Origin: Verrucomicrobiota bacterium
Lineage (GTDB): Bacteria > Verrucomicrobiota > Verrucomicrobiia > Limisphaerales > VHCN01
NCBI GenBank assembly: GCA_016871675.1
Contig: VHCN01000007.1
Span: 19,126 to 83,125 of the forward strand
Direction: 5' to 3'
DNA length: 64,000 bases
Shown: one piece after another, positions 3,305 to 43,464 of the stretch
How the letters are laid out: every line of letters starts with the position of its first letter
How positions within the stretch are numbered: position 1 is the first letter of the stretch
Notes under the pieces: model-generated
What the model was told of the DNA's origin: nothing
The model's database searches: none
The model's input: only the letters and a program-made list of their open reading frames with translations
Made by a program: the position numbers and the translations under genes

Positions 3305-4216
3305 TTACTTCCCGGCTTTGGAGCGGGAGGAAGAATCACCGCTTCCCGTCAACGGGTTCTCGATGCCTTCGCGTCTCGCAACCTCGGGCGCAATGCCCCA
3401 CAGCGCGGTCGCAGATGCCACTCGGACGACTTCTTCGCTGGAACGAACGGTCTTGAGCAACTCAGGGGTTGCGGGCGCTGCGAGCGGCCCAAAGTCGCGC
3501 AGTCCCGTGATGGCACCGATCCGGACGTCTGTCGTCGCGTGATCGAGCAACCGCAGAAGGGCTGGAACGACGCGGTCGGCATCTGCGCCGATTTTCCCGA
3601 GCGCGCCCGCTGCGGCGATGATGGTGGGAGCGTTAGTGGATCCCAATGCGTTCAACAAAACTGGAAGGGCGGGCGCGTCCGAAGGCCGGAGCGACAGGAT
3701 CGCGCTCGAAGCGGCCGCCCGGATGCGAGGTTGATCCGATGACACTGCTTGCACGACAGCCGTGACACCGTCGGGGCCCAGGCGCACCATCGCCATCGAG
3801 GCCACGGGCGCGTTTTCGGGAGATGCGAGCACGGGCAAGAGCAACGGGAGTGCAGCCGACGCGTTCGTCCCGAGCGCGCTGAAGGCGCCAACAGCGTAGG
3901 ACCTTCGTGTGGCGGGGAGAGTGTCCGCCAAACTTGGGAGAGAGTGAGGAGCCAGATTGTTGGGTGTTTTTGTCGGACCCGGAACCGCTCCGGCCTTGGA
4001 TTCGAGGAGGGCGACAAGTGTTGGAAATGCGTTTGTGCCCGAACGACGCAGTTGGTCAAGCGCACGATTCTTCCGCAGCTCATCAGTGGAATTCAGATCC
4101 TTGAGAATCTCACCGATGGGCCTTCCCTCCAGGCTCAGTTCGCTTTGGCTCGGACGGCAGGCGGCGAGGCAGAGGAGAAGCGAGAGGAGCGAAAGAGGTA
4201 GCCGGCGCATGTTCAT
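3305..4216 (-). CDS. HEAT-repeat lipoprotein
   Basis: Signal peptide with lipobox (MNMRRLPLSLLSLLLCLAAC). Repeated A/L-rich helical pairs follow (ALPLLLPVLASPE..., VPALLRLLDHATTDVRIGAITGL..., ELLKTVRSSEEVVRVASATAL) as in HEAT/PBS-lyase repeats. The start could be 4234, 4216 or 4210. Confidence 0.65.
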   Translation of the reverse strand: MNMRRLPLSLLSLLLCLAACRPSQSELSLEGRPIGEILKDLNSTDELRKNRALDQLRRSGTNAFPTLVALLESKAGAVPGPTKTPNNLAPHSLPSLADTLPATRRSYAVGAFSALGTNASAALPLLLPVLASPENAPVASMAMVRLGPDGVTAVVQAVSSDQPRIRAAASSAILSLRPSDAPALPVLLNALGSTNAPTIIAAAGALGKIGADADRVVPALLRLLDHATTDVRIGAITGLRDFGPLAAPATPELLKTVRSSEEVVRVASATALWGIAPEVARREGIENPLTGSGDSSSRSKAGK

Positions 4217-4285
4217 GGGGCGTGCGCAAGTCACACCACTTGCGTGAAACTGTCAACTCGGCACGCGGTTCGGCGGGGCAGGGGA

Positions 4286-5269
4286 CTAATCACCGGGGAG
4301 CACGGTCCACATCCCGCTCTGGTTGGTGATGTTCTGGTTGATCCGGCCCAGAGTCTCCTCGCGTTTGAGAATCTGCACATGGCCGTCGAGGAACATGTAG
4401 TTGAAGCGGCCATTGTGATACCGGTAGAACTCGGCATCACGTGCGGTGGGGAAGACGTTTTGAAAGCTCGAGTTCGAAGTCTCGCACGGACTGTTTGCGT
4501 AGCCATCACCAACGATGTTGGAGTTCTGGATTCGTTCGGTCAGGGCAATCGTGCCGCTCTGGTCCCCAAGCGTGGACAAGCGAAAGTTTTCCACGCCCTG
4601 CGGGTTGGCGCCTGCGTTTGCTGGCGTGGTCGTTGGCCAGTTGATTCCAGGCCGCAAGATCGTCGCCCCAAATGTGTTGTCCCAATTCAGGCCGATGCCG
4701 CACGGATTGCCCGGGCCGGGAGGCCAGTCGGCGGCTTGCGGACCTACGCCGTTGAAAATCCACGCCTGCATTCGGTGCTTCGGCATTGTGTAGCTTCGGC
4801 GCGCAGGAACGGCGGGGTCCGTGGCGAAAACCGCGATGACCTCGACTTTGTCCGTCGGGCATCGCAGCATTTTGGGCACCTTGCGACCCGGGGTAAACTC
4901 GTCGTTGAATTCTAGCGTCGTCATGTCCACCGCAAGGTAGCGAGCGATAAGGTCGTCCCAAGTCCATTCCGAATAGCCCTTGGGATGCCCACCGACGAGT
5001 GCAAGCGAGGAATAGGGAAACTTGTCATCCATGTCGCTGACGTAAAGGTGTATGGCCAGGCCCATCTGCCGCAAGTTTCCCTGACAGACGGCGGCTTGCC
5101 CCTTGGCCTTGGCCTTGGCCAGCGCCGGCAGCAGCATCCCCGCCAGAATTGCTATGATCGCAATGACGACGAGGAGTTCGATGAGGGTGAACCCGTCCCG
5201 ACGAACGGATTCCATTCTCGGATTGGAGGTCATGGTGTCGTTCATTGGAGAATCGTGGATTGTGAGCAC
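4286..5269 (-). CDS. DUF1559 / prepilin-type N-terminal cleavage-methylation domain protein (H-X9-DG pseudopilin-like)
   Basis: Contains G|[28 protein letters not shown] (class III signal/pilin helix) and a C-terminal [15 protein letters not shown] motif. It is a full-length paralogue of 33795..34775. The start is ambiguous: GTG at 5269, or ATGs at 5245, 5233 or 5215. Confidence 0.85.
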
Positions 5270-5286
5270 TGGTCTGGATGCAATCG

Positions 5287-5841
5287 CTATTGTTTCGAAA
5301 GCTTCACTTCCTTCGTGTTTTCATCGATGACGTATTGATAACCCGCAGGCGGCGGAGGGACGCTGCGGACGAGTCCGGCAGCCGCGAGGGCGTTGATGGA
5401 GTCGGGCAACAACCCAAACTTCTGCTGAAACGCCTCCACAGCACGTGTCAGTGCTGGCAAGTCAATGGGCTGTTGGGGCGCGGGAGCCTTGCGTGGCTGG
5501 CTCGAACTCGACGATGGGGCGCTACCGCCATCGCCCCCTCCCCGGCCTCGAGGGGCCGCATTCGGACTATCGCTCACCGGTTTCGGTTGCGATGCGCCCA
5601 AAGAAGTTGGCGGCGGGACGTAGGTGAGTGTCTTGTTTCCCTTTGGTTCCTTCGGCGTGGAAGACTGCGTGGGCACCGCCTCCGGTTGGCTCGAAGGTGC
5701 CGCCGAGGTCACGGCGGACGCTGGTGGAGCCGCAAGCGCAGGCTTTGCCGCCAGTTCAGGAGCCGGCGCAGGAGCCGGCGGCTTCCGGCACGAAATTGAC
5801 ACGGCGCAACCAAGCGAACAAATGAAGGCTGCAATGCGCAT
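5287..5841 (-). CDS. Pro/Ala-rich secreted protein (probable lipoprotein) with conserved C-terminal LP..I..L...GL..SVP..P.G....ID...KEV.L motif
   Basis: 184 aa. Hydrophobic N-terminus with Cys residues ([18 protein letters not shown]), a long P/A/S-rich linker, and a C-terminal ~50 aa homologous to the C-terminus of 33265..33777. It sits directly upstream of the DUF1559 gene, as in the second locus. Confidence 0.65.
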
Positions 5842-5863
5842 CGAATAATGGGTTGGTTGACCG

Positions 5864-5893
5864 ATTACTACTAAGGGAGGTTCCTCGGGTCAA
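5864..5893 (-). promoter_or_regulatory. Candidate sigma70-type promoter for the 5841->3305 gene string
   Basis: On the minus strand: TTGACC (5893-5888), a 17-nt spacer, then TAGTAAT (5870-5864), about 20 nt upstream of the ATG at 5841, in a locally AT-rich patch. Pattern match only. Confidence 0.3.
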
Positions 5894-6131
5894 ACTCATT
5901 CCTTCAGTGCAAGCGAATTCGCGCCGCTGCGGCCAAGGCACAAGCGCGCGTAGGGCAGCGGCTTCCTTCGCCGATGTTCGGCGCGCGGCGCAGCCGAGTC
6001 GAGACCGGTGCCCTGCGCGAGGATGGACGCGCGCGCTGCCCGGGATTGACGCGTGGAGGGATCCTGCCACGAGTCGGCCGGTGAATCGACCGCCGCACCC
6101 GCGGGCTGCGCGAATCCGCGACGACTTCTCT

Positions 6132-6159
6132 TTGCATCCCGCGCACCCTGTTCTATAAC
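6132..6159 (+). promoter_or_regulatory. Candidate sigma70-type promoter for pyc
   Basis: TTGCAT (6132-6137), a 16-nt spacer, then TATAAC (6154-6159), 12 nt upstream of the pyc ATG at 6172. Pattern match only. Confidence 0.3.
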
Positions 6160-6171
6160 CCTCCGGCCAAC

Positions 6172-9100
6172 ATGAGTTCCGGCAGACCTGTCACCGAAGC
6201 TGCGGCCCTCGCCGCGACCGCGTTCACGCCGCCGCGGCCCAGGAAGCTTCTCGTCGCCAACCGCAGCGAGATCGCCATCCGCATTTTCCGCGCCGCCACG
6301 GAGCTCGGCTTGCAGACGGTCGCCATCTATGCGCAGGAAGACCGTCTCGGCATCCATCGCTTCAAGGCGGACGAAGCCTACCAGGTCGGCGCGGGCAAGG
6401 GCCCCGTCGGCGCGTATCTCGACATCGAGGGCATCGTCGCGCTCGCCAAGGAACGCGGCGTGGACCTCATCCATCCCGGTTACGGGTTCCTCTCCGAGAA
6501 CGCGGACTTCGCCGACGCGTGCGCGAAGGCTGGCATCACCTTCGTCGGACCGCGGCCCGAGTTGCTCCGGCTCATGGGCGACAAGACGGCCGCGCGCGGG
6601 CTCGCCAAGACAATCGGCGTGCCCACGTTGCCGGGCACCGAGGAGCCGGTCGAGGACCGCGACGAGGCGCTGCGCATCGCGAAGGAGATCGGCTTCCCGC
6701 TCATCATCAAAGCCGCGTTCGGCGGCGGCGGGCGCGGGATGCGCGTGGTGCACAAGGCCGCCGACCTCGCGGACCTGCTCGACGAGGCGCGCGGCGAAGC
6801 GGGCCGCGCGTTCGGCAATCCCGCCGTCTTCCTCGAGAGATACATCCCGCGCGCCAAGCACATCGAGGTGCAGATCCTCGGCGACCGCCACGGCAACGTG
6901 CTCCACCTCCACGAGCGCGACTGCTCCGTGCAGCGCCGTCACCAAAAGGTCGTCGAGATCGCGCCGAGCATCGGGCTCGATGATCATGTGCGCCGCGAGT
7001 TGTGCCTCGCCGCCGTCCGCATGGCGAAGGAAGTCCGCTACGACAACGCGGGCACCATCGAGTTCCTGTTCGACCTCGACCGCAACGAATGGTTCTTCAT
7101 CGAGATGAACCCGCGCATCCAGGTCGAGCACACGGTCACCGAGGTCATCACGGGCATTGACCTCGTGCGTTCGCAGATTCTCGTCGCTCAAAACCACGCG
7201 CTGCACGGCACAGAACTCGACCTCCCGCCACAGGAGGACGTGCCGCGGATGGGCTTCGCCGTGCAATGCCGCGTCACGACCGAGGACCCGGAGAACAAGT
7301 TCACGCCCGACTACGGCAAGATTCTCACCTATCGGTCGGCGGCGGGCTTCGGCATCCGTCTCGACGGGGGCATGGGCGACTCGGGCAGCCTCATCACGCC
7401 GTTCTACGATTCGCTGCTCGTGAAGATCACCGCCTCGGGGCGCTCGTTCCCGATCGCGTTGCAGCGCATGGACCGCGCGCTGCGCGAGTTCCGCATCCGC
7501 GGCGTCAAGACCAACATCCCGTTCCTCGAAAACGTCATCGCGAACGACGCCTTCCGCACCGGCGCCGCGACGACCGCGCTGCTGGACACCACGCCCGCGC
7601 TGTTCACGTTCAAGGTCCGCCGCGACCGCGCCACGCGCCTGCTCAACTTCCTCGGCAACGTCATCGTCAACGGCAACCCGCACGCGAAAGGCTGCAAGCC
7701 CGGCGGCCCGCTGCCCGCCGCGCGGCCGCCAGAGTGGGACCACAAGCAGCCGCCACCCGACGGCACGCGCGACCTGTTGCGCAAGCTCGGCGCGCGGAAG
7801 TTCGCCGAGTGGACGCGCGAGCAGAAGCGCCTGCTCGTCACCGACACCACGTTCCGCGACGCGCACCAGTCGCTGCTCGCCACGCGCGTGCGCAGCTTCG
7901 ACATGCTCGCCGCCTCGGACGCCATCGCGCGGCGCACGCCGGGATTGTTTTCGCTGGAGATGTGGGGCGGCGCGACGTTCGACACCGCGATGCGCTTCCT
8001 GCACGAGGACCCATGGGAGCGCCTGCGCCAGTTGCGCGCGCGCATCCCGAACATCTGCTTCCAGATGCTCTTCCGCGGCAGCAACGCCGTCGGCTACTCG
8101 AACTATCCCGACAACGTCGTCGCCGGTTTCGTGAAGCACGCGGCCGCATCCGGCATTGATATCTTCCGCATCTTCGACTCGCTCAACTACACGCCCAACC
8201 TCCGGGTCGCGATGGAGGCCGTACAGGAAACGCACGCCGTCTGCGAAGCCGCCGTCTGCTACACCGGCGACATCCTCGACCCCAGGCGCGACAAGTATCC
8301 GCTCAAGTATTACGTCAACCTCGCGCGCGAACTCGGGAAGATGGGGGCGCACATCATCGCCATCAAGGACATGGCGGGACTCTGCCGGCCTTACGCCGCC
8401 TACAAACTGGTCAAGGCGCTCCGCGAGGAAGTCGCGCTGCCCGTGCACTTCCACACGCACGACACCAGCGGCATCAACTCCGCGTCCATCCTGCGCGCGA
8501 GCGACGCGGGCGTGGACGTGGTGGACCTCGCGCTCGCCTCGATGAGCGGCAGCACGAGCCAGCCCAACTTGAACTCCACCGTCGCCGCGCTCCAGCGCAC
8601 GCCGCGCGACACCCGGATCGACCTCGCCGCGCTCAACGAGTTCTCCGACTACTGGGACGAAGTGCGCGAGTTCTACAAACCCTTCGACACCGCGCCCCGC
8701 AGCGGCAGCGCCGAGGTGTATCTGCACGAGATGCCCGGCGGCCAATACACCAACCTCAAGGAACAGGCCGCGAGCATGGGCCTCGCGCACCGCTGGCACG
8801 AAATCGCCCGCACCTACGCCGAGGTCAACCAGCTCTTCGGCGACATCGTCAAGGTCACCCCCTCCTCCAAGGTCGTCGGCGACATGACCATGTTCCTCAT
8901 CACCCGCGGCATCAAGCCCGCCGACGTGGTGAACCTCGAGCCCGGCTCCGTGCCGTTCCCGGCCAGCGTGATAGACATGATGCACGGCGGCCTCGGCCAG
9001 CCGATGGGCGGATGGCCCGAGCGCGTGCAGAAGGTCGTCCTCGGCAACAAACGCCCCCTTCACGGCCGCCCCGGCGAAGACCTCGCCCCGCTGAACTTGA

Positions 9101-9675
9101 AGAAGACCCGCGACGAACTCGGCGCAAAGCTCAAGCGCGACGCCACCGACGACGACCTTTACTCCCACCTCATGTATCCCGAAGTCTTCGCCGACTTCGC
9201 GAAAATCCAGCGCGACTACGGCGACGTGGGCCTCCTTCCCACGCCCGCCTTCTTCTACGGCCTCAAGCCCGGCGAGGAAGTCTCCGTGAACATCGAGCAG
9301 GGCAAGACCCTTTTCATCAAGCTCATCAACATCGGCGGGCCGGACAAGGACGGCACGCGCACGCTGACCTTCGAGCTCAACGGCATCTCGCGCGAGGCGG
9401 CCATCGCCGACAAGGCGGTGCAGCCCAAGGCCAAGGCCCGCGTGAAGGCCGACCCCGCCGACCCGCTGCACGTCGGCGCGCCCATGCCCGGCGTCATCAC
9501 CTCGCTCGCCGTCGGCGTCGGCGCGAAGGTGGCGAAGGGCGACAAGCTGCTCACCCTCGAGGCGATGAAAATGCAGACCACCCTCTACGCCAACGCCGGC
9601 GGCGTGGTGGAAGAAATCGCCGCCCAAGTCGGCGACACCGTGGAGAGCAAGGACCTGCTCGTGCGGCTGCGGTAA
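6172..9675 (+). CDS. pyc: Pyruvate carboxylase (single-chain, biotin-dependent)
   Basis: 1167 aa with three recognisable parts: a biotin carboxylase N-terminus (LLVANRSEIAIRIFRAATELG, ATP-grasp GGGGRGMR), a carboxyltransferase TIM-barrel middle (FRDAHQSL, HFHTHDTSG), and a C-terminal biotinyl domain with EAMKMQT. Confidence 0.97.
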   Translation: MSSGRPVTEAAALAATAFTPPRPRKLLVANRSEIAIRIFRAATELGLQTVAIYAQEDRLGIHRFKADEAYQVGAGKGPVGAYLDIEGIVALAKERGVDLIHPGYGFLSENADFADACAKAGITFVGPRPELLRLMGDKTAARGLAKTIGVPTLPGTEEPVEDRDEALRIAKEIGFPLIIKAAFGGGGRGMRVVHKAADLADLLDEARGEAGRAFGNPAVFLERYIPRAKHIEVQILGDRHGNVLHLHERDCSVQRRHQKVVEIAPSIGLDDHVRRELCLAAVRMAKEVRYDNAGTIEFLFDLDRNEWFFIEMNPRIQVEHTVTEVITGIDLVRSQILVAQNHALHGTELDLPPQEDVPRMGFAVQCRVTTEDPENKFTPDYGKILTYRSAAGFGIRLDGGMGDSGSLITPFYDSLLVKITASGRSFPIALQRMDRALREFRIRGVKTNIPFLENVIANDAFRTGAATTALLDTTPALFTFKVRRDRATRLLNFLGNVIVNGNPHAKGCKPGGPLPAARPPEWDHKQPPPDGTRDLLRKLGARKFAEWTREQKRLLVTDTTFRDAHQSLLATRVRSFDMLAASDAIARRTPGLFSLEMWGGATFDTAMRFLHEDPWERLRQLRARIPNICFQMLFRGSNAVGYSNYPDNVVAGFVKHAAASGIDIFRIFDSLNYTPNLRVAMEAVQETHAVCEAAVCYTGDILDPRRDKYPLKYYVNLARELGKMGAHIIAIKDMAGLCRPYAAYKLVKALREEVALPVHFHTHDTSGINSASILRASDAGVDVVDLALASMSGSTSQPNLNSTVAALQRTPRDTRIDLAALNEFSDYWDEVREFYKPFDTAPRSGSAEVYLHEMPGGQYTNLKEQAASMGLAHRWHEIARTYAEVNQLFGDIVKVTPSSKVVGDMTMFLITRGIKPADVVNLEPGSVPFPASVIDMMHGGLGQPMGGWPERVQKVVLGNKRPLHGRPGEDLAPLNLKKTRDELGAKLKRDATDDDLYSHLMYPEVFADFAKIQRDYGDVGLLPTPAFFYGLKPGEEVSVNIEQGKTLFIKLINIGGPDKDGTRTLTFELNGISREAAIADKAVQPKAKARVKADPADPLHVGAPMPGVITSLAVGVGAKVAKGDKLLTLEAMKMQTTLYANAGGVVEEIAAQVGDTVESKDLLVRLR

Positions 9676-32678: not shown

Positions 32679-33071
32679 ATGAAGATGTCATGGCTGTCAG
32701 CCGCGATGCTGGTCGGTGGCCTGTTCGCCGGATGCACGAAGAGAGAAGCAGCGCCTCCTGCGCCGCCGCTTCAGATCAAGGCCGCACCGCCCGTTGCAGC
32801 CCCCAAAGTGGAACCCGCCAGTATTCAACCGCCGACGCCGGCGCAACCCCCGCCCGAAGTTCCAGCGTCCCCGGCAAAAACCGAGGCGCCCTTCGACGCC
32901 AAGGCCGCCGCCCAGCAGCAGCAACAGTTCAACGACATCAACAAGATTCTGGCGGACTTGAGCTCGAGCGATCCCGCGGCGCAATCACGCGCGCGCGGAG
33001 CCATCCAGCGGCTCACCCCCGCGCAGCGCCAGGAATTTGAGAAGCTGCGAAAGCTCTACTTGGGGAAGTGA
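32679..33071 (+). CDS. Pro-rich lipoprotein (hypothetical)
   Basis: 130 aa from the ATG at 32679. It has a lipobox signal peptide MKMSWLSAAMLVGGLFAGC, a P/A-rich linker, a Q-run, and a helical C-terminus (RLTPAQRQEFEKLRKLYLGK). Confidence 0.55.
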   Translation: MKMSWLSAAMLVGGLFAGCTKREAAPPAPPLQIKAAPPVAAPKVEPASIQPPTPAQPPPEVPASPAKTEAPFDAKAAAQQQQQFNDINKILADLSSSDPAAQSRARGAIQRLTPAQRQEFEKLRKLYLGK

Positions 33072-33264: not shown

Positions 33265-33777
33265 ATGAGCGCTCGCGGACTTTGTCATGCAATGGCCCTT
33301 CTGGCTTTGGCCGGATGCAGCCGGGAGCCAAAGGCTCAAAGCACGAACCCTGCTGTCGTTGCGCCACCGCCGCCCGCCGTTCGACCGGTCACGGTGGCAT
33401 CTCCAACTCCGCCTGCACCTTCAGGCGCTCCGGCGCCCGTTGGGGCGAATGCTCCCGGCGCTCCCTCCTCGCCGGCAGCGGTTCAGACCGGTGGGTTTGT
33501 CGTGGAACCGCAGAAGAAAACCTTTGTTGCCATCGGTTTGGGGTCGATGCGCCGCCCTCAAAAGGGCCCGACGCCTTCAGCCGAAGAATCGCTGGCGCTG
33601 TTGAACGATGCCCTCAAGGCTCACTTGGCCACCGGCAATCCGCTGCCGGCGAGGATTGAGGAACTTGTGAGTTCGGGTTTGATTCAAAGCGTCCCCAAGG
33701 CGCCGATTGGGAAGCGGTTCGAGATCGATGCCGCCTCGAAGGAAGTCCGGCTGACGAGCGCCGGTTCGGCGCCCTAA
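33265..33777 (+). CDS. Pro/Ala-rich lipoprotein with C-terminal LP..I..L...GL..SVP..P.G....ID...KEV.L motif (paralogue of 5287..5841)
   Basis: ATG at 33265 preceded by GGAGAG (33253-33258). It has the lipobox LLALAGC and a P/A-rich linker. The C-terminal [51 protein letters not shown] aligns with the C-terminus of the 5287..5841 product. Confidence 0.7.
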
Positions 33778-33794
33778 CGAGATCAGGAGCAAAC

Positions 33795-34775
33795 ATGAAA
33801 TCAAACACACGACCGCAGAACACTGGCGAATGCGCGAGGGCCGGTTTCACCCTGATCGAATTGCTGGTCGTGATCGCCATCATCGCGATTCTGGCTGCGA
33901 TGCTGTTGCCGGCGCTTGCCGGAGCCAAAGAGCGCGCCAATGCCACCAAGTGCATGGCCAACCTGAAACAGGCCGCCCTCGCCAACCTCCTTTACGCCGA
34001 GGAAAACGACGACCGACTCACGTTTGGCGCCTGCCATTCCAGCGCGAACACGGCGTGGTCCTGGGATGACATGGTGGCCTCGTATCTGGGAGTGCGATAC
34101 ACGCAACAGGAGTTTGACAGCAACATCGCCACCAACGCGCCGGCCATGCTGGCGTGTCCGTCGGACAAAGTGCCTCGTTCCACAACGTGGACATCGCGCG
34201 GGGGCAAGGTGCGGACCTACGCGATGCCCATGCACAACATGCGGATCCTTGTCATCAACGGGGTGCAGTTTCCTTCTGCGGCCGATTGGCCGCCTGGAGC
34301 CAACAACACTTGCGGCATCGGGATCTATTGGGAGATCGGCGGCAACGGCTTCCCGGACCTCATCCGGCCGAACGTGAATTGGAACGCGGCCGACCCCAAG
34401 CCCACGACATCGCCCAAAGCCCAGCCCGCATACCGCCTCGGAACCCTTAACCGCCCCGACGACATCATCATGCTCACCGAACTCGTCTCAGCGGAGAACG
34501 TCGCCGGAAGCGCCTCGTCCCAGAATATCCCGGGCTACGGCCTGCTTGCGGCCACAAGTGTGGTGGACTCGCCGCTGGAACAACTCGACATCAACCAGCC
34601 CACGCCGACAATCGTCGGTTCCTACACGGGCCGCTACAAGTTTCACGCCAACGGAAAGTTCCAATACGTGATGCTCGATGGCCACGCGGAGCGGCAGTTG
34701 CCCGAGGACACACTTGGACGGAGCCGCGACATCCGGAGGCAGACCGGAAAGTGGACACCGACCGTGACGGACTGA
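33795..34775 (+). CDS. DUF1559 / prepilin-type N-terminal cleavage-methylation domain protein (H-X9-DG pseudopilin-like)
   Basis: [17 protein letters not shown]|[28 protein letters not shown] and a C-terminal [20 protein letters not shown] lies in the 17-nt gap after the upstream gene. It is a full-length paralogue of 4286..5269. Confidence 0.88.
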
Positions 34776-36029: not shown

Positions 36030-37175
36030 TCAGGCGCCAAGCAGCCTCGCGTGTTCTTCCATCGCATAGCGGTCCGTCATGCCGGCGACGTAGTCGCAGA
36101 CGACGCGGTGCAGGCCGTCCTTGCGGATGCGTTTGCGGGCTTGTTCGCCGAGTTCCGCGGGCCGCTTCAAGTAGGTGTGAAAGAGGTCTTCGAGCATCTT
36201 CACGGCGCGCACGTTGGGTTCGTGGACGACGGGGTTGAAGTAGAGGTTTTCGTAGAGATACTCGCGCAGGTCGAGGTTCAGCTTGCGGCGCTCGGCGCTG
36301 TATTGCACGAGCGGCCGCGGTTGAAGGCGCACATCGTCGGCGGAGTTCACGCCCACGGCGCGGAGGCGTTCCATGGTCGTGGCCACTACGTCGCTCACCT
36401 GCCTGTCAATCAGGCAGCGGATGATGAAGTAGCGGCGTGACTCGTCCGCGAGCGCGCCGTGGACGCGCCTGACCGCGCGGTCGGCGAGGGACCACAGCTT
36501 CACGTCGCCTCGAAGCTGCTTCTCGCTGAGCAGGTCGGACTCAAGCCCGTCGTCGAGGTCGTGGCTGTAGTAGGCGATTTCATCGGCGAGGTTGGCGACC
36601 TGCGCTTCGAGGGACGAGGACCTGGCCTCGAACCCCGGTCGTTGGCTCGGATGGTCGAAGGCGGTGTAGTGCTTCACGAGCCCTTCGCGCGCCTCCCACG
36701 TGAGGTTCAGCCCGCGAAAAGCGGGATATTTCTGCTCGAGTTCCTCGACGATGCGCAGGCTCTGCCGGTTGTGCTCGAAGCCGCCGTGGGACTTCATGAG
36801 CGTGTTGAGCGCCTGCTCGCCGGAGTGGCCGAAAGGCGAGTGTCCGAGGTCGTGCGCGAGCGCGATGGTCTCCGCCAGGTCCTCGTTGAGGCGCAGCGCA
36901 CGCGCGATGTTGCGGGAGATCGCGGCGACTTCTATTGTGTGCGTGAGGCGAGTGCGGAGGTGGTCGCCGGTGCCGTTGAGGAAGACCTGCGTCTTGTATT
37001 CGAGCCGGCGGAAGGCGCGCGAGTGGATGACGCGGTCGCGGTCGCGCTGGTATTCAGTGCGCCACTCGGGCGGGGCTTCCTTGAACTTTCTCCCGCGCGT
37101 GTCGGAGCTGAACTGCGCGAAGGGCGCGAGCGTGCGGCGTTCGCGAAGTTCGAGTTCGGCGCCGGTGCAGGGCAT
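36030..37175 (-). CDS. dgt: dGTP triphosphohydrolase-like HD-domain protein
   Basis: LAPFAQFSSDTRGRKFKE...YQRDRDRVIHSRAFRRLEYKTQVF...RLTHTIEVAAISRNIARAL...LAHDLGHSPFGHSGE. Start chosen at the ATG at 37175 (alternative 37220). The remaining upstream part of ORF ..37400 overlaps ispH. Confidence 0.9.
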   Translation of the reverse strand: MPCTGAELELRERRTLAPFAQFSSDTRGRKFKEAPPEWRTEYQRDRDRVIHSRAFRRLEYKTQVFLNGTGDHLRTRLTHTIEVAAISRNIARALRLNEDLAETIALAHDLGHSPFGHSGEQALNTLMKSHGGFEHNRQSLRIVEELEQKYPAFRGLNLTWEAREGLVKHYTAFDHPSQRPGFEARSSSLEAQVANLADEIAYYSHDLDDGLESDLLSEKQLRGDVKLWSLADRAVRRVHGALADESRRYFIIRCLIDRQVSDVVATTMERLRAVGVNSADDVRLQPRPLVQYSAERRKLNLDLREYLYENLYFNPVVHEPNVRAVKMLEDLFHTYLKRPAELGEQARKRIRKDGLHRVVCDYVAGMTDRYAMEEHARLLGA

Positions 37176-37228
37176 GGAGGAGGGGAATGCGGAGTGCGGA
37201 ACGGCTCGGATGCGCCTCATGGATGCGC

Positions 37229-38464
37229 TCAATTCGCCAGCACGTCCTGCACGGAGATTCCGCGCAGATCGAGCAGGCGCTTGATGGCGTCCTCGATGAG
37301 GTTGTTCGGGCAGCTCGCGCCGGCGGTGATGCCGATGGTGATGGGGCTGGAGGGCAGCCAGTGGCGCGTTTCCTCCTCGACGTGGGTGTGCTGGTTCCAA
37401 TGCCGGATGAGCGCGGCGGATTCCATCTTGGCGGCGTTCTTGATGAAATACGTGGGGAGGACTTTCTCGCCCATCTCGGCGAGGTGTGATGTGTTCGACG
37501 AGTTGTAGCCGCCGATGACAAGCAGCAGGTCGAGTTTCTCGCGCAGGAGTTTGCCGAGCGCGTCCTGGCGGTCCTGCGTCGCGCCACAGATGGTGTCGAA
37601 GAAGCGGAAGTGGTCATTGATGCTCGCGGCGCCGTGCTTCTTCTCCATCGCCGAGCGAAAGCGCCGCTGCACTTCCTCCGTCTCGCCGCGGAGCATCGTG
37701 GTCTGGTTGGCGACGCCGACGGCGATGAGGTGCTCGTCCGGGTCGAAACCCGCCGAGTGAGCGCCTTTGAACTTTTCGAGGAACTCGGCCTTGTCGCCGC
37801 CGCGCAGGATGTAGTCGCAGACGTAGTCGGTTTCTTCGAGGTTGAACACGACGAGGTAGTGGCCGCTGCCGTAAGCCGTGGCCTGCGACGTGGTGGCCTT
37901 CGTCTCCTCGTGCTTCGCCTTGCCGTGGATGATGCTGGTGACGCTCTCCTTGGAGTATTGGCGGACGCGTTTCCACACGGACATCACGTCCCCGCAGGTG
38001 GTGTCCACGAGCAGGCAGCCCTTTTCCTCAAGCCGGCGTCGCGTGAGGACTTCGGTGCCGAACGCGGGGATGATCACCACGTCATCGCGCTGAAGCATGG
38101 CCATCTCCTCCTCGGTGGGCTTGTTGGAAATGGTGCGGATGCCGAGGTTGCGAATCTGGTCGTTGACCTCGGGGTTGTGGATGATTTCGCCGAGCAGGAA
38201 GATGGGCTTGTCCGCCGCGAAGGACTTGCGCGCGGCATAAGCGAGGTCAATCGCCCGCTCGACGCCGTAGCAGAAGCCGAATTCCTTCGCGAGCATGATG
38301 GTCAATCCCTCGGCGCGGATGACGTGTCCCTGCGCGCGGAGATGCTCGACGAGCTGGCTGCGGTAATGCGACTCGACCTGCGCCTGCACGGCGGTCATCA
38401 CCTCCGGGCGGCGGAGGTTGATCTTCTGCGGTGGTGCGTGTCGGGGTGCGGCGAGCGTTGACAT
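37229..38464 (-). CDS. ispH: 4-hydroxy-3-methylbut-2-enyl diphosphate reductase (long form)
   Basis: 411 aa. Contains FGFCYGVERAIDLAY, IHNPEVN, TTCGDVMSVW and ICGATQDRQDA, which provide the three Fe-S cysteine contexts. N-terminal and internal extensions make it longer than the ~316-aa E. coli type. Confidence 0.92.
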   Translation of the reverse strand: MSTLAAPRHAPPQKINLRRPEVMTAVQAQVESHYRSQLVEHLRAQGHVIRAEGLTIMLAKEFGFCYGVERAIDLAYAARKSFAADKPIFLLGEIIHNPEVNDQIRNLGIRTISNKPTEEEMAMLQRDDVVIIPAFGTEVLTRRRLEEKGCLLVDTTCGDVMSVWKRVRQYSKESVTSIIHGKAKHEETKATTSQATAYGSGHYLVVFNLEETDYVCDYILRGGDKAEFLEKFKGAHSAGFDPDEHLIAVGVANQTTMLRGETEEVQRRFRSAMEKKHGAASINDHFRFFDTICGATQDRQDALGKLLREKLDLLLVIGGYNSSNTSHLAEMGEKVLPTYFIKNAAKMESAALIRHWNQHTHVEEETRHWLPSSPITIGITAGASCPNNLIEDAIKRLLDLRGISVQDVLAN

Positions 38465-38581
38465 GACGAGGGTGAAGATAACAGCGCAAGGCGGAGCGTC
38501 GAGGCTTGATTGAGGGGATGGGGCGCCGGCGGTTGCTGCGAAGTTCAGCGGCGGGCGGCTCTGCCAGGCGAATCTTCCGTT

Positions 38582-38609
38582 TTCACGGCGCGTCAGGATC
38601 TGTTAAATT
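38582..38609 (+). promoter_or_regulatory. Candidate promoter for the PSCyt/DUF1553-DUF1501 pair
   Basis: TTCACG (38582-38587), a 16-nt spacer, then TAAATT (38604-38609), 8 nt before the ATG at 38618. This would give a near-leaderless transcript. Pattern match only. Confidence 0.3.
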
Positions 38610-38617
38610 CAGCGCGC

Positions 38618-41600
38618 ATGACGATGAGTCACGGAACCACATCACCGATCCTCGCACGAGCAACCCTGGTCATGCTGACGCTCGGACTTGCCCCGGACTG
38701 CTCGATCGCCCATGCAGGCTCCGACGAGTTTTTCGAGAAGCGCATCCGTCCGCTTCTGGTCGAGAAGTGCTTCAAGTGCCACAGCGCGGAGTCCGAGAAA
38801 CTCAAGGGCGGGTTGCGGCTCGACTCGCGCGAGGCGATGCTGAAGGGAGGCGACACCGGTCCCGCGGTGGTGCCGGGCGAGCCCGCGCGGAGCCTGCTCA
38901 TCAAGGCCGTGAGCTACGAGCACACGGACTTGCAGATGCCGCCCAAGGCGAAGCTGCCCGCGCGGGAACTCTCCGACCTCGCCTCGTGGGTGACGTCTGG
39001 CGCGCCGTGGCCGGCCGCGAAACCAGCCATGGGCGCGGGCGCGTCCGCGAAGAAGGACGGGTTCGATTTGCAAAAGCGCCGCGCCTCGCACTGGGCCTGG
39101 CAGCCCGTTCGCGCGACTGCCCTGCCGAAGGTGAAGCAACGCGACTGGCCGGCGACGACTGTGGACCAGTTTGTCCTTGCGAAACTCGAGGCCGCGAATC
39201 TCAAACCGGCAACGTCCGCCGGGGCGCGGGCGTTGATCCGGCGACTCTCCTTTGATCTCGTCGGCTTGCCGCCGACGCCGGCTCAGGCGGAGGCATTCGC
39301 AGCCAGCACCGGCGGGACGGACAGGCCCAACAAGCCCTACGAGTCCGTCGTGGATGAACTGCTCGCATCGCCCGCTTTCGGCGAGCGATGGGCGCGGCAC
39401 TGGCTCGATCTTGTGCGCTATGCCGAGACGCGCGGGCACGAGTTCGAGCCGATCATTCCGAACGCATGGCAGTATCGCGACTACGTCATCCGCGCGCTGA
39501 ATGCCGACGTTCCCTACGACCGGTTCGTGACGGAGCACATCGCCGGCGACCTTGTGCCGCAACCGCGGCTGAACCCCGGGAATGGGGCGAACGAATCACT
39601 GCTCGGCACGGGCTTCTGGTTTCTCGGCGAAGAAGTCCACTCGCCGGTGGACATCCGGCAGGACGAATGCGATCGCCTGGACAACCGCGTGGACGTGATG
39701 ACCAAGACCTTCCTCGGCCTCACCGTGAGTTGCGCCCGCTGCCACGATCACAAATTCGACGCCATCTCGCAGCGCGACTACTACGCGCTCGTCGGATTCC
39801 TCATCAGCAGCAACTACCGGCAGGCGCGGTTTGAGACGATCGAGCACCATCGCGCCATCGCGCACGAACTCGACAAGCTCCGCACATCCGAATCGCCACG
39901 ACTGATGACCGAACTTGCGGTCGCGCTCCGGCCCGCGGCGGAAAGCGCCGCCCAAAACCTCCTCGCCGTCCGGCGGGCGGCGCCGGCGGAAAGGGAGGCG
40001 GGCAACACGTGGCCCCGCGAACTCTCGGCCGCGAAGTCCGACCGCGCGCATCCGTTGCATGCGTTCGCCGCGCTGCCGCCGGGCGCGGACGATCCGTCGC
40101 GCTTTAGATCGGAGGCCGCCACGTTCTTGCAGTCGTTCACAAATCGGCCGGGAGCCGCATCGGGGCCCGAAGACGGGATTATCGCCGACTTCACCCGCGT
40201 GGCGGCGCAGGATTGGTTTCAGGATGGATTCTCGTTCGGGCTCCGCCCGGCCCGTGCCGGCGAATTGCGATTCGGAGCGGATGGAGTCCAGCCTCTTCTC
40301 GGCGTGTTGACACATGCGGGCGCGTGGCGTGATGAGGCGTGGAAGCAGCTGAAAGTGACAGCGACTGAACGTGACGACGCGAAGCTCGGGCAGTGGGACC
40401 GCAGCGAGCAGACGCTTCGCACGCCCGAGTTCACGCTCACGGGCGGGAGACTTTGGTATCTGGTGAAGGGGCCGGGCCGCGCCTACTCGCCGGTGGATTC
40501 GCACCTCATCGTGCACGGCCCGCTCCACGGGGCGACGCTCAAGGAATGGAAGACAGGCGCGACAGAATGGCAATGGGTCGAGCACCGGCTCGATGCCTAC
40601 AAAGGCCACCGGGCCCACGTCGAGTTTAGCCCTGTCGGGACGAACGACCTCGCCATCGCGATGGTGTTGCAGCAGGAGTCGCAGCCGTCAGCGCCGGGGA
40701 CGAATCCCCTTGTCGCCTCCCTGCTCGCCGATGCCGCGTGCGATTCGGCGACGGCGCTCGCCAACGGGCTGCAAGCCTTGTTCCTTCGCGCGCTCGGCCG
40801 CATGGAATCCAGCGCGCTCGCAACCGATCCCGAGGCCGCCGCACTCGCACCTTTTGCCGACCTGCTCGTTCGGAATGTTCACTCGTTTTGCCCCGTCGGT
40901 TCTGCCCGACGGACCCGGCTCGACGCCGCGCTCAGACCTTTCGCCACCCGCCAGGCGGAATTGGCGAAATCGATCAAACCGAACTCGGCCACCGCACCGG
41001 CGATCATGGATGGCAACGGCGTGAGTGAATTCCTGCTCGTTCGCGGCCAGCCAAGGACGCCCGCCGCGCCCGTGCCGCGCCGGTTCCTTGAAGCCATCGC
41101 GGGCGCGAGGCAGCCCGATTACGGCGCGGGCAGCGGCCGCTTGCAGCTCGCCCAACAAATCACCGACCCTTCGAATCCGCTCACGGCGCGCGTGATCGTG
41201 AATCGCGTCTGGCATCACCTCTTCGGGCGCGGCATCGTCCCGACCGTGGACAACTTCGGCGCGCTCGGCCAGGCGCCCTCGCACCCGGAGTTGCTCGACC
41301 ACCTCGCGGACCGATTCGTCACGGTGCATCGCTGGTCGCTCAAGCAACTCATCCGCGAACTCGTCCTTTCGCGCGCTTATCAAATGTCCAGCGAACCGGT
41401 TGACGCGCGAGCTGAAGCTGCGGACCCGGCGAATGCCCTGCTCCACCGCGCAAACTTGAGGCGCCTCGAAGCCGAAGTCATCCGCGATTCGATACTCGCG
41501 GTCTCGGGCCGCCTCGATCCAAAGCAGGGCGGGCCGAGCGTGCCGGTCCACCTGACTGCCTTCATGGAAGGACGCGGCAGGCCAGCCCAGAGCGGCCCAC

Positions 41601-42013
41601 CCGACGGCGATGGTCGCCGCAGCATCTACATTGCAGTGCGCCGGAATTTCCTCTCGCCGATGATGCTCGCCTTCGACGCGCCCATTCCGTTCACCACCAT
41701 CGGCCGGCGCAATGTTTCGAACGTGCCCGCGCAGGCGCTCATCTTGATGAACGACCCGTTCGTGGTGCAGCAGGCGCAAGTGTGGGCGAAGCGTGTCCTC
41801 GCCGCGCCGACGGCTTCGACGGCGGAGCGGGTGCGCGGCATTTACCTCGCAGCGTTCGCGCGCCTGCCGACCGTTTCGGAACTCGGCGACTCGCTCGCAT
41901 TCGTCGAGGCGCAGTCCAGATCATACGAGCCCGGCGCAACCGGCGAGCAGAAGGCGTGGGCCGACCTCTGCCACGTGATGTTCAACGCGAAGGAGTTCAT
42001 TTTCTTGAACTGA
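38618..42013 (+). CDS. PSCyt (planctomycete cytochrome c) + DUF1549 + DUF1553 (PSD1) domain protein
   Basis: Signal peptide, then FFEKRIRPLLVEKCFKCHS (CxxCH). This is followed by RRLSFDLVGLPPTPAQAEAF (DUF1549 signature) and CARCHDHKFDAISQRDYYAL (DUF1553 signature), with a C-terminal NAKEFIFLN. Start at the ATG at 38618 or 38624. Confidence 0.88.
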   Translation: MTMSHGTTSPILARATLVMLTLGLAPDCSIAHAGSDEFFEKRIRPLLVEKCFKCHSAESEKLKGGLRLDSREAMLKGGDTGPAVVPGEPARSLLIKAVSYEHTDLQMPPKAKLPARELSDLASWVTSGAPWPAAKPAMGAGASAKKDGFDLQKRRASHWAWQPVRATALPKVKQRDWPATTVDQFVLAKLEAANLKPATSAGARALIRRLSFDLVGLPPTPAQAEAFAASTGGTDRPNKPYESVVDELLASPAFGERWARHWLDLVRYAETRGHEFEPIIPNAWQYRDYVIRALNADVPYDRFVTEHIAGDLVPQPRLNPGNGANESLLGTGFWFLGEEVHSPVDIRQDECDRLDNRVDVMTKTFLGLTVSCARCHDHKFDAISQRDYYALVGFLISSNYRQARFETIEHHRAIAHELDKLRTSESPRLMTELAVALRPAAESAAQNLLAVRRAAPAEREAGNTWPRELSAAKSDRAHPLHAFAALPPGADDPSRFRSEAATFLQSFTNRPGAASGPEDGIIADFTRVAAQDWFQDGFSFGLRPARAGELRFGADGVQPLLGVLTHAGAWRDEAWKQLKVTATERDDAKLGQWDRSEQTLRTPEFTLTGGRLWYLVKGPGRAYSPVDSHLIVHGPLHGATLKEWKTGATEWQWVEHRLDAYKGHRAHVEFSPVGTNDLAIAMVLQQESQPSAPGTNPLVASLLADAACDSATALANGLQALFLRALGRMESSALATDPEAAALAPFADLLVRNVHSFCPVGSARRTRLDAALRPFATRQAELAKSIKPNSATAPAIMDGNGVSEFLLVRGQPRTPAAPVPRRFLEAIAGARQPDYGAGSGRLQLAQQITDPSNPLTARVIVNRVWHHLFGRGIVPTVDNFGALGQAPSHPELLDHLADRFVTVHRWSLKQLIRELVLSRAYQMSSEPVDARAEAADPANALLHRANLRRLEAEVIRDSILAVSGRLDPKQGGPSVPVHLTAFMEGRGRPAQSGPPDGDGRRSIYIAVRRNFLSPMMLAFDAPIPFTTIGRRNVSNVPAQALILMNDPFVVQQAQVWAKRVLAAPTASTAERVRGIYLAAFARLPTVSELGDSLAFVEAQSRSYEPGATGEQKAWADLCHVMFNAKEFIFLN

Positions 42014-43464
42014 TGCATCACTGCCACCGCTACCTCCGAACTCCGCTGTCAAGACGCGAGATGCTCGCGCAGTGCGCGAATGGCTTTGGCGCGCTCGCGT
42101 TCACCGCGCTCCTGGCCGAAACCGCGCGCGGCGGCGCGGATTTGACCAGCCTTCCGTCCACCGCGCCGAGCGGAGCGCCCGGGCCGCGCCGTCCGCACTT
42201 TCCGGCGCGCGCGCGGAGCGTGATCTTCCTTTACATGGACGGGGGGCCGTCGCAGGTGGAGACCTTTGACCCGAAGCCGAGGCTCACGAAGGAGGACGGC
42301 CAGCCTTTCGGGATGAAGATGGAGCCGACGCAGTTCAACAACAACGGCACCACGCTCGGCTCGCTGTGGGCATTCCAGCAGCATGGCCGCAGCGGCATTC
42401 CGGTCAGCAGTCTGTTTCCGCACGTCGCGCAATGCGTGGACGAGCTCGCGGTGGTCCGCTCGATGACGAGCAACTTTTCGGAGCACACGAACGCGAATTA
42501 CTTTCTCCACACGGGCAGCGGCCTGCAGGGCCGGCCGAGCATGGGCGCGTGGGTCGGCTACGGGTTGGGCACGGAAAGCGCCGACCTGCCGGGCTTCGTC
42601 GTGCTCAACGGCGGGCTCATCCCTCCGGGCGGCCTCGACAACTTCAACAGCGGATTCCTGCCCGCGTCGTTCCAAGGGTCGGTGTTCAAGGCCGGGGAGA
42701 ATCCCGTCGCGAACATCCGCCCGACCGAGCCGGGCGCGACGTTGCAGCAGAACAAACTCTCGTTGCTCAACCGCCTCGACCGCGCGCTCGTCGCGCGAAC
42801 GGGGAGGCACGACGCGCTCGAAAGCGCCATCGCAAACTATGAACTTGCCGGACGCATGCAGACCGCCGTGCCCGCCCTCATGGAATTGCGTGGCGAGAGC
42901 GACGCGACGCGCGAACTTTACGGCCTCACCTCGCGCGTGGAGCAGACCCGCACGTTCGGCGCGCAATGCCTGCTTGCGCGGCGGATGGTCGAGCGCGGCG
43001 TGCGCTTCATCGAACTCACGTGTCCGAACGGGGCGGGCGACCGATGGGACCAGCACGGTGACTTGAAGAACGGCCACGAAAAGAACGCGCTGTTCGTCGA
43101 TCAGGGGATCGCCGGGCTTTTGAAGGATTTGAAATCATGCGGCCTGCTTGACTCGACGCTAGTCGTGTGGGCGGGCGAGTTTGGTCGCACGCCCTTCGCA
43201 CAGGGCAAGAACGGGCGCGACCACAATCCCTACGGCTTCACCATCTGGCTCGCGGGCGGCGGGATCAAGGGCGGCACCATCCACGGCGCGACGGATGACT
43301 ACGGCTACAAGGCCGTCGAAAACCGCGTGGCCATCCACGACCTGCACGCGACGATGCTGCACCTGCTCGGCCTCGATCACACTCGCGTGACCTTCCGTTT
43401 CAGCGGGCGAGACATGCGGTTGACGGACGTGCACGGCGAGGTGGTGCGGGAAATCCTCGCGTAG
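42013..43464 (+). CDS. DUF1501 (sulfatase/alkaline-phosphatase-like) protein, Tat-type signal
   Basis: The start ATG overlaps the upstream TGA (TGATG, 42011-42015). Contains LSRREMLAQCANGFGALAF, SVIFLYMDGGPSQVETFDPKP and GRDHNPYGFTIWLAGGG, typical of DUF1501. Confidence 0.88.
   Translation: MHHCHRYLRTPLSRREMLAQCANGFGALAFTALLAETARGGADLTSLPSTAPSGAPGPRRPHFPARARSVIFLYMDGGPSQVETFDPKPRLTKEDGQPFGMKMEPTQFNNNGTTLGSLWAFQQHGRSGIPVSSLFPHVAQCVDELAVVRSMTSNFSEHTNANYFLHTGSGLQGRPSMGAWVGYGLGTESADLPGFVVLNGGLIPPGGLDNFNSGFLPASFQGSVFKAGENPVANIRPTEPGATLQQNKLSLLNRLDRALVARTGRHDALESAIANYELAGRMQTAVPALMELRGESDATRELYGLTSRVEQTRTFGAQCLLARRMVERGVRFIELTCPNGAGDRWDQHGDLKNGHEKNALFVDQGIAGLLKDLKSCGLLDSTLVVWAGEFGRTPFAQGKNGRDHNPYGFTIWLAGGGIKGGTIHGATDDYGYKAVENRVAIHDLHATMLHLLGLDHTRVTFRFSGRDMRLTDVHGEVVREILA

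Follow-up and report, generated by a model that had tools for sequence, protein, structure and literature searches.

The 64,000-nucleotide (nt) stretch of Verrucomicrobiota contig VHCN01000007.1 that we analysed (the window; 65% G+C) carries, at two loci, a small gene followed by a gene for a large prepilin-type protein of the H-X9-DG/DUF1559 kind. The products are referred to here as small1 and pil1 (copy 1) and small2 and pil2 (copy 2). An earlier, sequence-only reading of this DNA had described the loci as two copies of one unit, which raised the question of whether the small gene encodes a conserved, dedicated partner of the DUF1559 protein. Inspection of the open reading frames (ORFs) within the window agreed with the two-gene layout at both loci, and both genes could be aligned between the copies, as expected of a single unit. 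The reading that we prefer, to which we assign a probability of about one half, is that at each locus the two genes form an envelope module that is conserved in Verrucomicrobiota and transcribed together, and that their products probably bind to each other, the lipoprotein tethering or controlling the pseudopilin.

The small proteins and their pseudopilin-like domain

The two small proteins were reported earlier to share only their C-terminal ~50 amino acids (aa). Sharing is indeed restricted to the C-terminus, and the shared segment is longer, at ~70 aa. The pairwise alignment was significant outside the Pro/Ala-rich part of the proteins, with identity at 26 of 71 positions (37%; E = 3e-11). 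Using a domain profile built from the two sequences, a word-indexed search recovered a self-fragment only, and an exhaustive HMMER search recovered 606 cluster representatives at E ≤ 1e-3. Most of these are proteins of 95-180 aa, with a signal peptide carrying a lipobox Cys, a Pro/Ala-rich linker and a domain of ~57 aa at the extreme C-terminus, for which the family consensus is adL..LtqAlr.F.ae.gRlP.sLeELVaaGyl..lPppPaGkkyvIDpktgeV.Lv. Judged by these matches, the C-terminal domain of the small proteins defines a real family. The domain was also seen in two to four tandem copies (P0003, P0005, P0007 and P0011), at the C-terminus of membrane-anchored TPR-like proteins (P0026, P0054, P0075, P0083 and P0125) and at the C-terminus of an ankyrin-repeat lipoprotein (P0119). 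These occurrences suggest that it may serve as a general periplasmic interaction module.

A profile of 78 family sequences matched ~123-aa N_methyl/T2SSG proteins that bear the source name GspG (E ~ 1e-7). Searched against the PDB with hmmsearch, the same profile matched the solved GspG/EpsG chains 3g20, 1t92, 5wda and 4lw9, with E values of 7.5e-4 to 5e-3, and the alignment took in helix alpha1C as well as the "Y(I/L)RRLPQDPWG" loop. Comparison with short pseudopilins by hhalign gave a probability of 98.3% (E = 1.4e-14) and placed columns 5-53 of the domain on pseudopilin residues 38-86, which is the stretch immediately past the transmembrane helix. Several relatives carry a precomputed, weak match to Pfam PF26697 (ComGC_C); no match to PF08334 (T2SSG) was found at E ≤ 1 for the small proteins of the window. 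An AlphaFold2 (AF2) model of the domain, built from an alignment that contained no prepilin sequences, showed a helix (residues 24-38), a short helix (45-51) and a beta-hairpin (64-68/75-79), with a predicted local distance difference test score (pLDDT) of ~90 over the domain. Its top PDB match in Foldseek was EpsG of V. cholerae (63 columns, root mean square deviation 3.4 Å, E = 1.5), which we regard as corroborative only. Taken together, the profile comparisons indicate that the small domain is a homologue of the GspG/ComGC-type pseudopilin head, comprising alpha1C, the alpha-beta loop and the first beta-hairpin, without alpha1N. This pseudopilin-like nature had not been part of the sequence-only reading.

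The resemblance to GspG/ComGC (T2SSG, PF08334; PF26697) thus covers alpha1C, the (R/K)xP...L(D/E)ELV...YL..(V/I)P.DP loop and the first strands. Unlike those proteins, the small proteins have neither a class III signal nor a hydrophobic alpha1N, in whose place stand a lipoprotein signal and a Pro/Ala-rich tether directly after the N-terminus, and we therefore do not consider them to be pilins. In a further difference, the small domain ends after a two-stranded hairpin and scores below the curated thresholds of Pfam and NCBIfam, neither small protein having a curated match in either collection. A regular expression for the prepilin motif found no instance among the small-domain hits that were checked; by hand reading, the domain does occur in one prepilin, P0110, which is not of the H-X9-DG type. 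Comparison of the small domain with the partner pilin by hhalign detected no relationship, indicating that the small protein is neither a truncated nor a duplicated form of the adjacent pilin. None of 120 pilin hits was an H-X9-DG pilin fused to the small domain.

Both small proteins have the architecture of the family. Small1 consists of a signal peptide, a ~102-aa linker rich in Pro, Ala and Ser and the pseudopilin-like domain, while in small2 a canonical lipobox, LAGC (Cys18), is followed by a ~78-aa Pro/Ala-rich linker and the same domain. Small2 is therefore a predicted lipoprotein. The lipobox of small1, SLGC or SISC, departs from the standard [LVI][ASTVI][GAS]C, and for this reason small1 is only a probable lipoprotein. 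Of the 46 partner proteins, 31 satisfied a crude lipobox regular expression; this count is too low. Linker length ranges from 8 to ~115 aa among relatives, and the homologues P0009, P0013, P0022 and P0027 share the architecture of small2.

We considered whether the long small ORFs might be artefacts of gene calling, with only a short C-terminal peptide, or nothing at all, being made. Proteins identical to those of the window are present on JGI, ENA and Logan contigs and in an NCBI Verrucomicrobia metagenome-assembled genome. The exact 184-aa small1 product is called in JGI/Logan/ENA assemblies, and the 170-aa small2 product is recorded on 12 contigs. Other public calls shorten small2, to 91 aa (NCBI MBM3875669.1, "hypothetical protein"; JGI) or to 76 aa (ENA/Logan), by starting at internal ATGs, with loss of the lipoprotein signal and linker; the small gene is thus shortened or left unnamed in public annotations. 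Along with these shortened calls, the unremarkable third-position G+C of the linker region would be in keeping with an artefact. Against it, the lipobox-linker-domain architecture is kept by homologues at low identity, and a Shine-Dalgarno-like GGAG lies 8 nt 5' of the small2 ATG at 33265. In addition, the ratio of nonsynonymous to synonymous substitution rates (dN/dS) for the small gene, calculated over its final 82-100 codons, was 0.10-0.39 and thus clearly less than 1. In the short homologues that were compared, these codons take in the linker, partly or completely. We rejected this explanation as very improbable on these three grounds. The corresponding dN/dS of the pilin gene was 0.03-0.14, and by this measure both genes are under purifying selection.

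The prepilin-type proteins and their pairing with the small gene

The analysis of the large proteins was confined to a ~300-aa subfamily of H-X9-DG/DUF1559 proteins. Pil1 and pil2 aligned end to end, as had been claimed, with 39% identity over 333 columns (E = 7e-51). Each begins with a class III signal, that is a short basic leader ending in Gly, followed by F-T-L-I-E (Glu at +5) and ~20 hydrophobic residues. Both matched PF07963 N_methyl (E = 1.3e-8 for pil1 and 4.2e-8 for pil2) and exceeded the TIGR02532 cutoff of 16.3 bits, at 32.1 and 31.7 bits respectively. Pil1 also matched the Pfam DUF1559 model (PF07596, SBP_bac_10; 34.9 versus 23.3 bits), over profile positions 10-55 of 268 only, and was above the cutoff of TIGR04294 (H-X9-DG; 20.6 versus 19 bits). 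A precomputed PF07596 match is present on many close pilin relatives. Pil2 matched neither PF07596 nor TIGR04294 and carries an H-X10-DG motif, on account of which we consider it a variant of the H-X9-DG type and conclude that the curated models under-call this subfamily. Scores against the GspG equivalog TIGR01710 were 33.0 bits (pil1) and 37.1 bits (pil2), below the cutoff of 88.85, and arose from the N-terminal helix only.

The subfamily was defined from a 12-sequence alignment, in which two Cys, W-D, C-P-x-D, R-x-Y-x-M, H...D-G-H and a C-terminal G-x-W....D were invariant. A 60-sequence alignment gave a similar, non-identical invariant set; the Pro of C-P-x-D, for example, was nearly invariant among the 12 sequences and invariant among the 60. 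At their C-terminus, members read G(M/K)W(T/S)....D. With a subfamily profile, at least 8000 proteins were recovered at E ≤ 1e-10, and their source names, where given, correspond to the H-X9-DG prepilin type. Pil1 and pil2 share with the H-X9-DG (TIGR04294)/DUF1559 (PF07596) proteins of Planctomycetes-Verrucomicrobia a prepilin signal, a putative DUF1559-type region after alpha1 and the H-X9(10)-DG-H motif, and pil2 is unlike typical members in missing both curated models and in its H-X10-DG. We conclude that they are ordinary members of a known, functionally uncharacterised family.

Solved pilins in the PDB were matched by the subfamily profile, which included pil1, across alpha1 only. An AF2 model of pil1 (pLDDT 65, predicted template modelling score 0.71) contained a helix at residues 17-67 with pLDDT 80-96, and a head mostly below 60. 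In a Foldseek search of the PDB, this model matched only alpha1 of PilA from M. xanthus.

To describe how often the two genes are neighbours, we examined loci from both sides of the pair. In all three unrelated metagenome contexts, the small gene was followed by a gene for an N_methyl protein of 314-322 aa, clearly of the pil1/pil2 subfamily, the spacing varying between an overlap of 8 nt and a gap of 19 nt. A genome scan with one genome per species, keyed on and covering a 14-sequence subgroup of the small domain, found 26 loci, which to judge from record labels or G+C content are essentially all in Verrucomicrobiota (Limisphaerales, subdivision 3). An H-X9-DG prepilin gene immediately adjoined the small gene in 25 of them and was missing from one. 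The neighbourhood comparison across genomes (25/26) and metagenome contexts (3/3) therefore showed strongly conserved adjacency. The prepilin lay downstream on the same strand, as in the window, at 14 of the 26 loci. At eight others (L019-L023, L025, L026 and L029; type B), which belong to another branch of the small-protein family, the order was reversed, with a shorter H-X9-DG prepilin of ~247 aa, ending DPRALWDK, upstream of the small lipoprotein gene on the same strand, and at three (L024, L027 and L035) the two genes were convergent. Retention of the reversed and convergent orders indicates that the pairing survives rearrangement. The distance from the small-gene stop to the GFTLIE codons, leader peptide included, had a median of 76 nt.

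Several genomes had more than one cassette, sometimes in tandem: L033 carries an apparent small-pilin-small-pilin array (3868-6715), and L028 (4130-6325) has one small gene followed by two pilins that are 83% identical. Four of the loci, L015, L019, L024 and L029, come from records labelled 'uncultured Klebsiella sp.' or 'Bifidobacteriaceae'. With their H-X9-DG prepilin cassettes these loci look verrucomicrobial in gene content, the G+C of L019, the only one of the four measured, is 65%, and the record labels are probably wrong.

Genes of the prepilin type are very numerous, as the count of at least 8000 matches above illustrates, and two abundant Verrucomicrobiota families might be placed side by side by chance. 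The ~190 kb examined for the 26 loci, however, contained only ~4 non-adjacent prepilins, compared with an immediate pilin neighbour at 25 of the 26, which excludes chance adjacency. Moreover, partner presence followed the pilin phylogeny, with nearest-neighbour concordance in 74 of 82 cases compared with 41.6 expected (permutation maximum, 59), and across 46 pairs the identities of pilin and small domain co-varied (Mantel r = 0.66; permutation maximum, 0.27). Chance placement was rejected on the strength of the adjacency, the concordance and the Mantel correlation, and we regard it as improbable in the extreme.

Seen from the pilin, the association was clade-structured. A metagenome scan keyed on the motif [FI]NY[LMV][FM][HVL]DGH yielded 80 loci, ~27 of which had the small domain just upstream. 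When all loci were pooled, 35 distinct evaluable pilins had no partner, and ~40% of the sampled close pilin relatives were partnered. The clade of pil1 and pil2 was mostly partnered, including L036, L038, L041, L031 and L030; L028_5375, L039 and L042, in the same clade, had no adjacent partner. Of the suggestion that the small protein is a conserved, dedicated partner, the conservation of adjacency therefore stands, while the notion of a general or dedicated DUF1559/H-X9-DG companion does not, the partner being specific to certain clades and missing beside the other ~60%.

How the two products might act together

We infer both co-transcription of the two genes and binding of the lipoprotein to the pseudopilin. 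Under the two-gene module reading, the product of the first gene would combine a lipid-modified Cys, a flexible Pro/Ala-rich tether and a ~57-aa helix-less pseudopilin head. The product of the second, a ~300-aa H-X9-DG/DUF1559 protein, would be processed by prepilin peptidase and anchored through alpha1N, either to the inner membrane or within a pseudopilus. The two would be made together and bound head to head in the periplasm, each copy in the window having its own partner. The lipoprotein could then serve as a pseudopilin mimic that is tethered to a membrane and does not polymerise, and in this way position, cap or retain the H-X9-DG pseudopilin with which it is paired; because it lacks alpha1N, it should be unable to enter the filament. 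An analogy is provided by outer-membrane lipoproteins of the LpoB type, which use a long disordered linker to reach a membrane-anchored periplasmic partner. The small proteins match this design, with a predicted lipid anchor, a flexible linker that is often long and a C-terminal domain that is small and globular. They have no sequence or fold relationship to LpoB, and their relatives vary in linker length over the range given above (8 to ~115 aa).

More specifically, and only tentatively, we propose that by docking on the H-X9-DG pseudopilin encoded beside it, the lipoprotein provides this protein with a cap or with an anchor in the outer membrane. If true, a docking mimic would represent a way of using type IV filament parts that has not been described before, and would open the very large H-X9-DG/DUF1559 family to functional study for the first time. 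It would also spread many paralogous receptors or tethers, made of pseudopilins coupled to lipoproteins, across the Verrucomicrobiota periplasm.

The same operon and co-inheritance evidence is equally expected if the lipoprotein is a transient assembly or stability factor for its cognate prepilin, similar to a chaperone or pilotin, and not a stable structural partner. Such a factor might prevent degradation or premature self-association, or hand the prepilin to the pseudopilus machinery. A helix-less pilin head could occupy the contact surface between pilins, and the partner is dispensable in many pilin clades, as is often so for accessory factors. In Pfam and NCBIfam, however, the small proteins did not resemble any known pilotin or chaperone, and the variable, often long tether would be left unexplained. 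We consider this alternative rather unlikely.

A second alternative, in our estimate as unlikely as the first, is that the two genes are co-transcribed envelope genes whose products make no direct contact; both might, for example, be loaded onto or recognised by one type IV filament machinery, or share a substrate, for instance a glycan. Neither adjacency nor co-inheritance needs contact. As background, type IV pilus-like systems of Verrucomicrobiota have been tied to glycan capture or uptake, by way of different genes (PMC13174399, PMC12418764). Also compatible with an absence of contact are the presence of the small domain in unrelated contexts and the lack of a pilin position specific to partnered proteins, to which we return below. 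On the other hand, the very short spacing is more typical of interacting products, as is the fact that the pair has repeatedly been kept at pilin identities of 35-40% and in three gene orders.

Several observations weigh against the two-gene module reading. Approximately 60% of the sampled subfamily pilins have no adjacent partner, and no column of the pilin alignment separates partnered from solo proteins. Among the small-domain proteins, the branches P0166, P0167 and P0177 adjoin unrelated genes, and the domain is found in TPR-like and ankyrin proteins that are not linked to pilins; with such branches outside the pairing, the partner is not universal. The Mantel correlation falls to r = 0.29 among deep pairs, and a mirror-tree correlation can arise from co-inheritance alone. 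On the structural side, the match of the small domain to EpsG did not reach significance, and the pil1 head was modelled with low confidence (pLDDT 65) and had no structural match in the PDB by Foldseek. Finally, no gene for type II secretion or type IV pilus machinery, or for prepilin peptidase, was found near either copy.

We compared the pair with other lineage-specific systems. Conserved multi-copy cassettes of prepilin-type genes also encode the Verru_Chthon proteins A-D of Verrucomicrobia (TIGR02596, TIGR02599 and the models related to them). The proteins studied here gave weak N-terminal matches only, of ~13-23 bits compared with cutoffs of 70-256, and the Verru_Chthon cassette is of other composition and has no lipoprotein partner. 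Membership was rejected because the scores were far under cutoff and the cassette composition differed. Type IV pilus-like loci of Akkermansiaceae have been implicated in glycan attachment and uptake (PMC13174399, PMC12418764), which offers no more than a plausible setting for the pair; the Akkermansia MUL2 pilus genes were rejected as the same system since the genes are different. In Planctopirus limnophila, no paralogue group is larger than DUF1559, which has 68 members, two of them essential, and no known function (PMC10632474). We found no description of the lipoprotein/H-X9-DG pairing in the literature searched on DUF1559, H-X9-DG, and pseudopilin plus lipoprotein in bacteria of the Planctomycetes-Verrucomicrobia-Chlamydiae group.

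A co-inherited, pseudopilin-like partner turns the H-X9-DG/DUF1559 family into a defined two-protein problem. The pairing provides a concrete experimental handle. In the small proteins, moreover, a pilin head has been put to new use on a predicted lipoprotein anchor, which is relevant to the evolution of type IV filament systems.

The two loci within the window

The coordinates of both copies are collected in Table 1. In copy 1, 17 nt separate the small-gene stop from the GTG at which the pil1 ORF opens. Because the alignment with pil2 begins at the Met encoded at 5233, translation of pil1 probably starts at one of two ATGs, 5233 or 5245, for a product of ~315-319 aa. The intergenic gap of copy 2 is also 17 nt, and contains AGGAG 5 nt before the pil2 ATG.

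Table 1. Positions of the two gene pairs and of their predicted domains and motifs in the 64,000-nt window.
Feature	Position	Strand	Remark
Copy 1 unit	4286-5841	-	Small gene, then prepilin-type gene
Copy 1 small gene (small1)	5287..5841	-	184 aa, probable lipoprotein
Small1 conserved C-terminal domain, residues 126-182	5296..5466	-	Similarity to copy 2
Copy 1 prepilin-type H-X9-DG/DUF1559 protein (pil1)	4286..5269	-	ORF opens at GTG 5269
Pil1 class III (prepilin) signal and alpha1N helix	5129..5194	-	Pfam N_methyl, TIGR02532
Pil1 H-X9-DG motif	4379..4417	-	TIGR04294, 20.6 bits vs cutoff 19
Copy 2 unit	33265-34775	+	Small gene, then prepilin-type gene
Copy 2 small gene (small2)	33265..33777	+	170 aa, predicted lipoprotein
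Small2 conserved C-terminal domain, residues 108-164	33586..33756	+	Similarity to copy 1
Copy 2 prepilin-type protein (pil2)	33795..34775	+	326 aa, same subfamily as pil1
Pil2 class III signal and alpha1N	33843..33908	+	N_methyl, TIGR02532
Pil2 variant motif H-X10-DG	34644..34685	+	Aligns with pil1 motif, one-residue insertion

No third copy of either gene was found in the window by tblastn. From the 39% identity of the pilins and the 37% identity of the small domains, we judge that the two copies are ancient paralogues and not the outcome of a recent duplication. Promoter and terminator scans around both copies gave background levels only. The third-position G+C of the cassette genes is 0.64-0.79, compared with 0.81-0.92 in neighbouring housekeeping genes (6172-9675, 1213-2727 and 36030-37400), which would fit low expression or a different history.

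The neighbours of copy 1 include a TolC-like OEP, a thioesterase and pyruvate carboxylase, and those of copy 2 an AP_endonuc_2 protein, an HD protein and LytB. Two further lipoprotein genes described earlier were both found. One, a HEAT-repeat lipoprotein (3305-4216, minus strand) with the lipobox LAAC, starts 69 nt past the pil1 stop on the same strand, and may be co-transcribed with copy 1 in the window. The other, a third Pro-rich lipoprotein (32679-33071, plus strand), has the lipobox FAGC, a Pro/Ala-rich linker, a QQQQQ run and a charged helical C-terminus. It lies 190 nt upstream of copy 2, has neither a pseudopilin-like domain nor a family match, and among the fetched loci its relatives were copies from the same organism only. 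Neither of these genes, nor that of a 293-aa neighbour, is conserved beside cassettes at other loci, and the module is therefore taken to consist of two genes. Further from copy 2, ~3.7 kb downstream (~38510-43464; L001 14880-19672), a gene for a PSCyt1/PSCyt2/PSD1 protein of 1113 aa is followed by one for a DUF1501 protein of 483 aa, and the two ORFs share one base.

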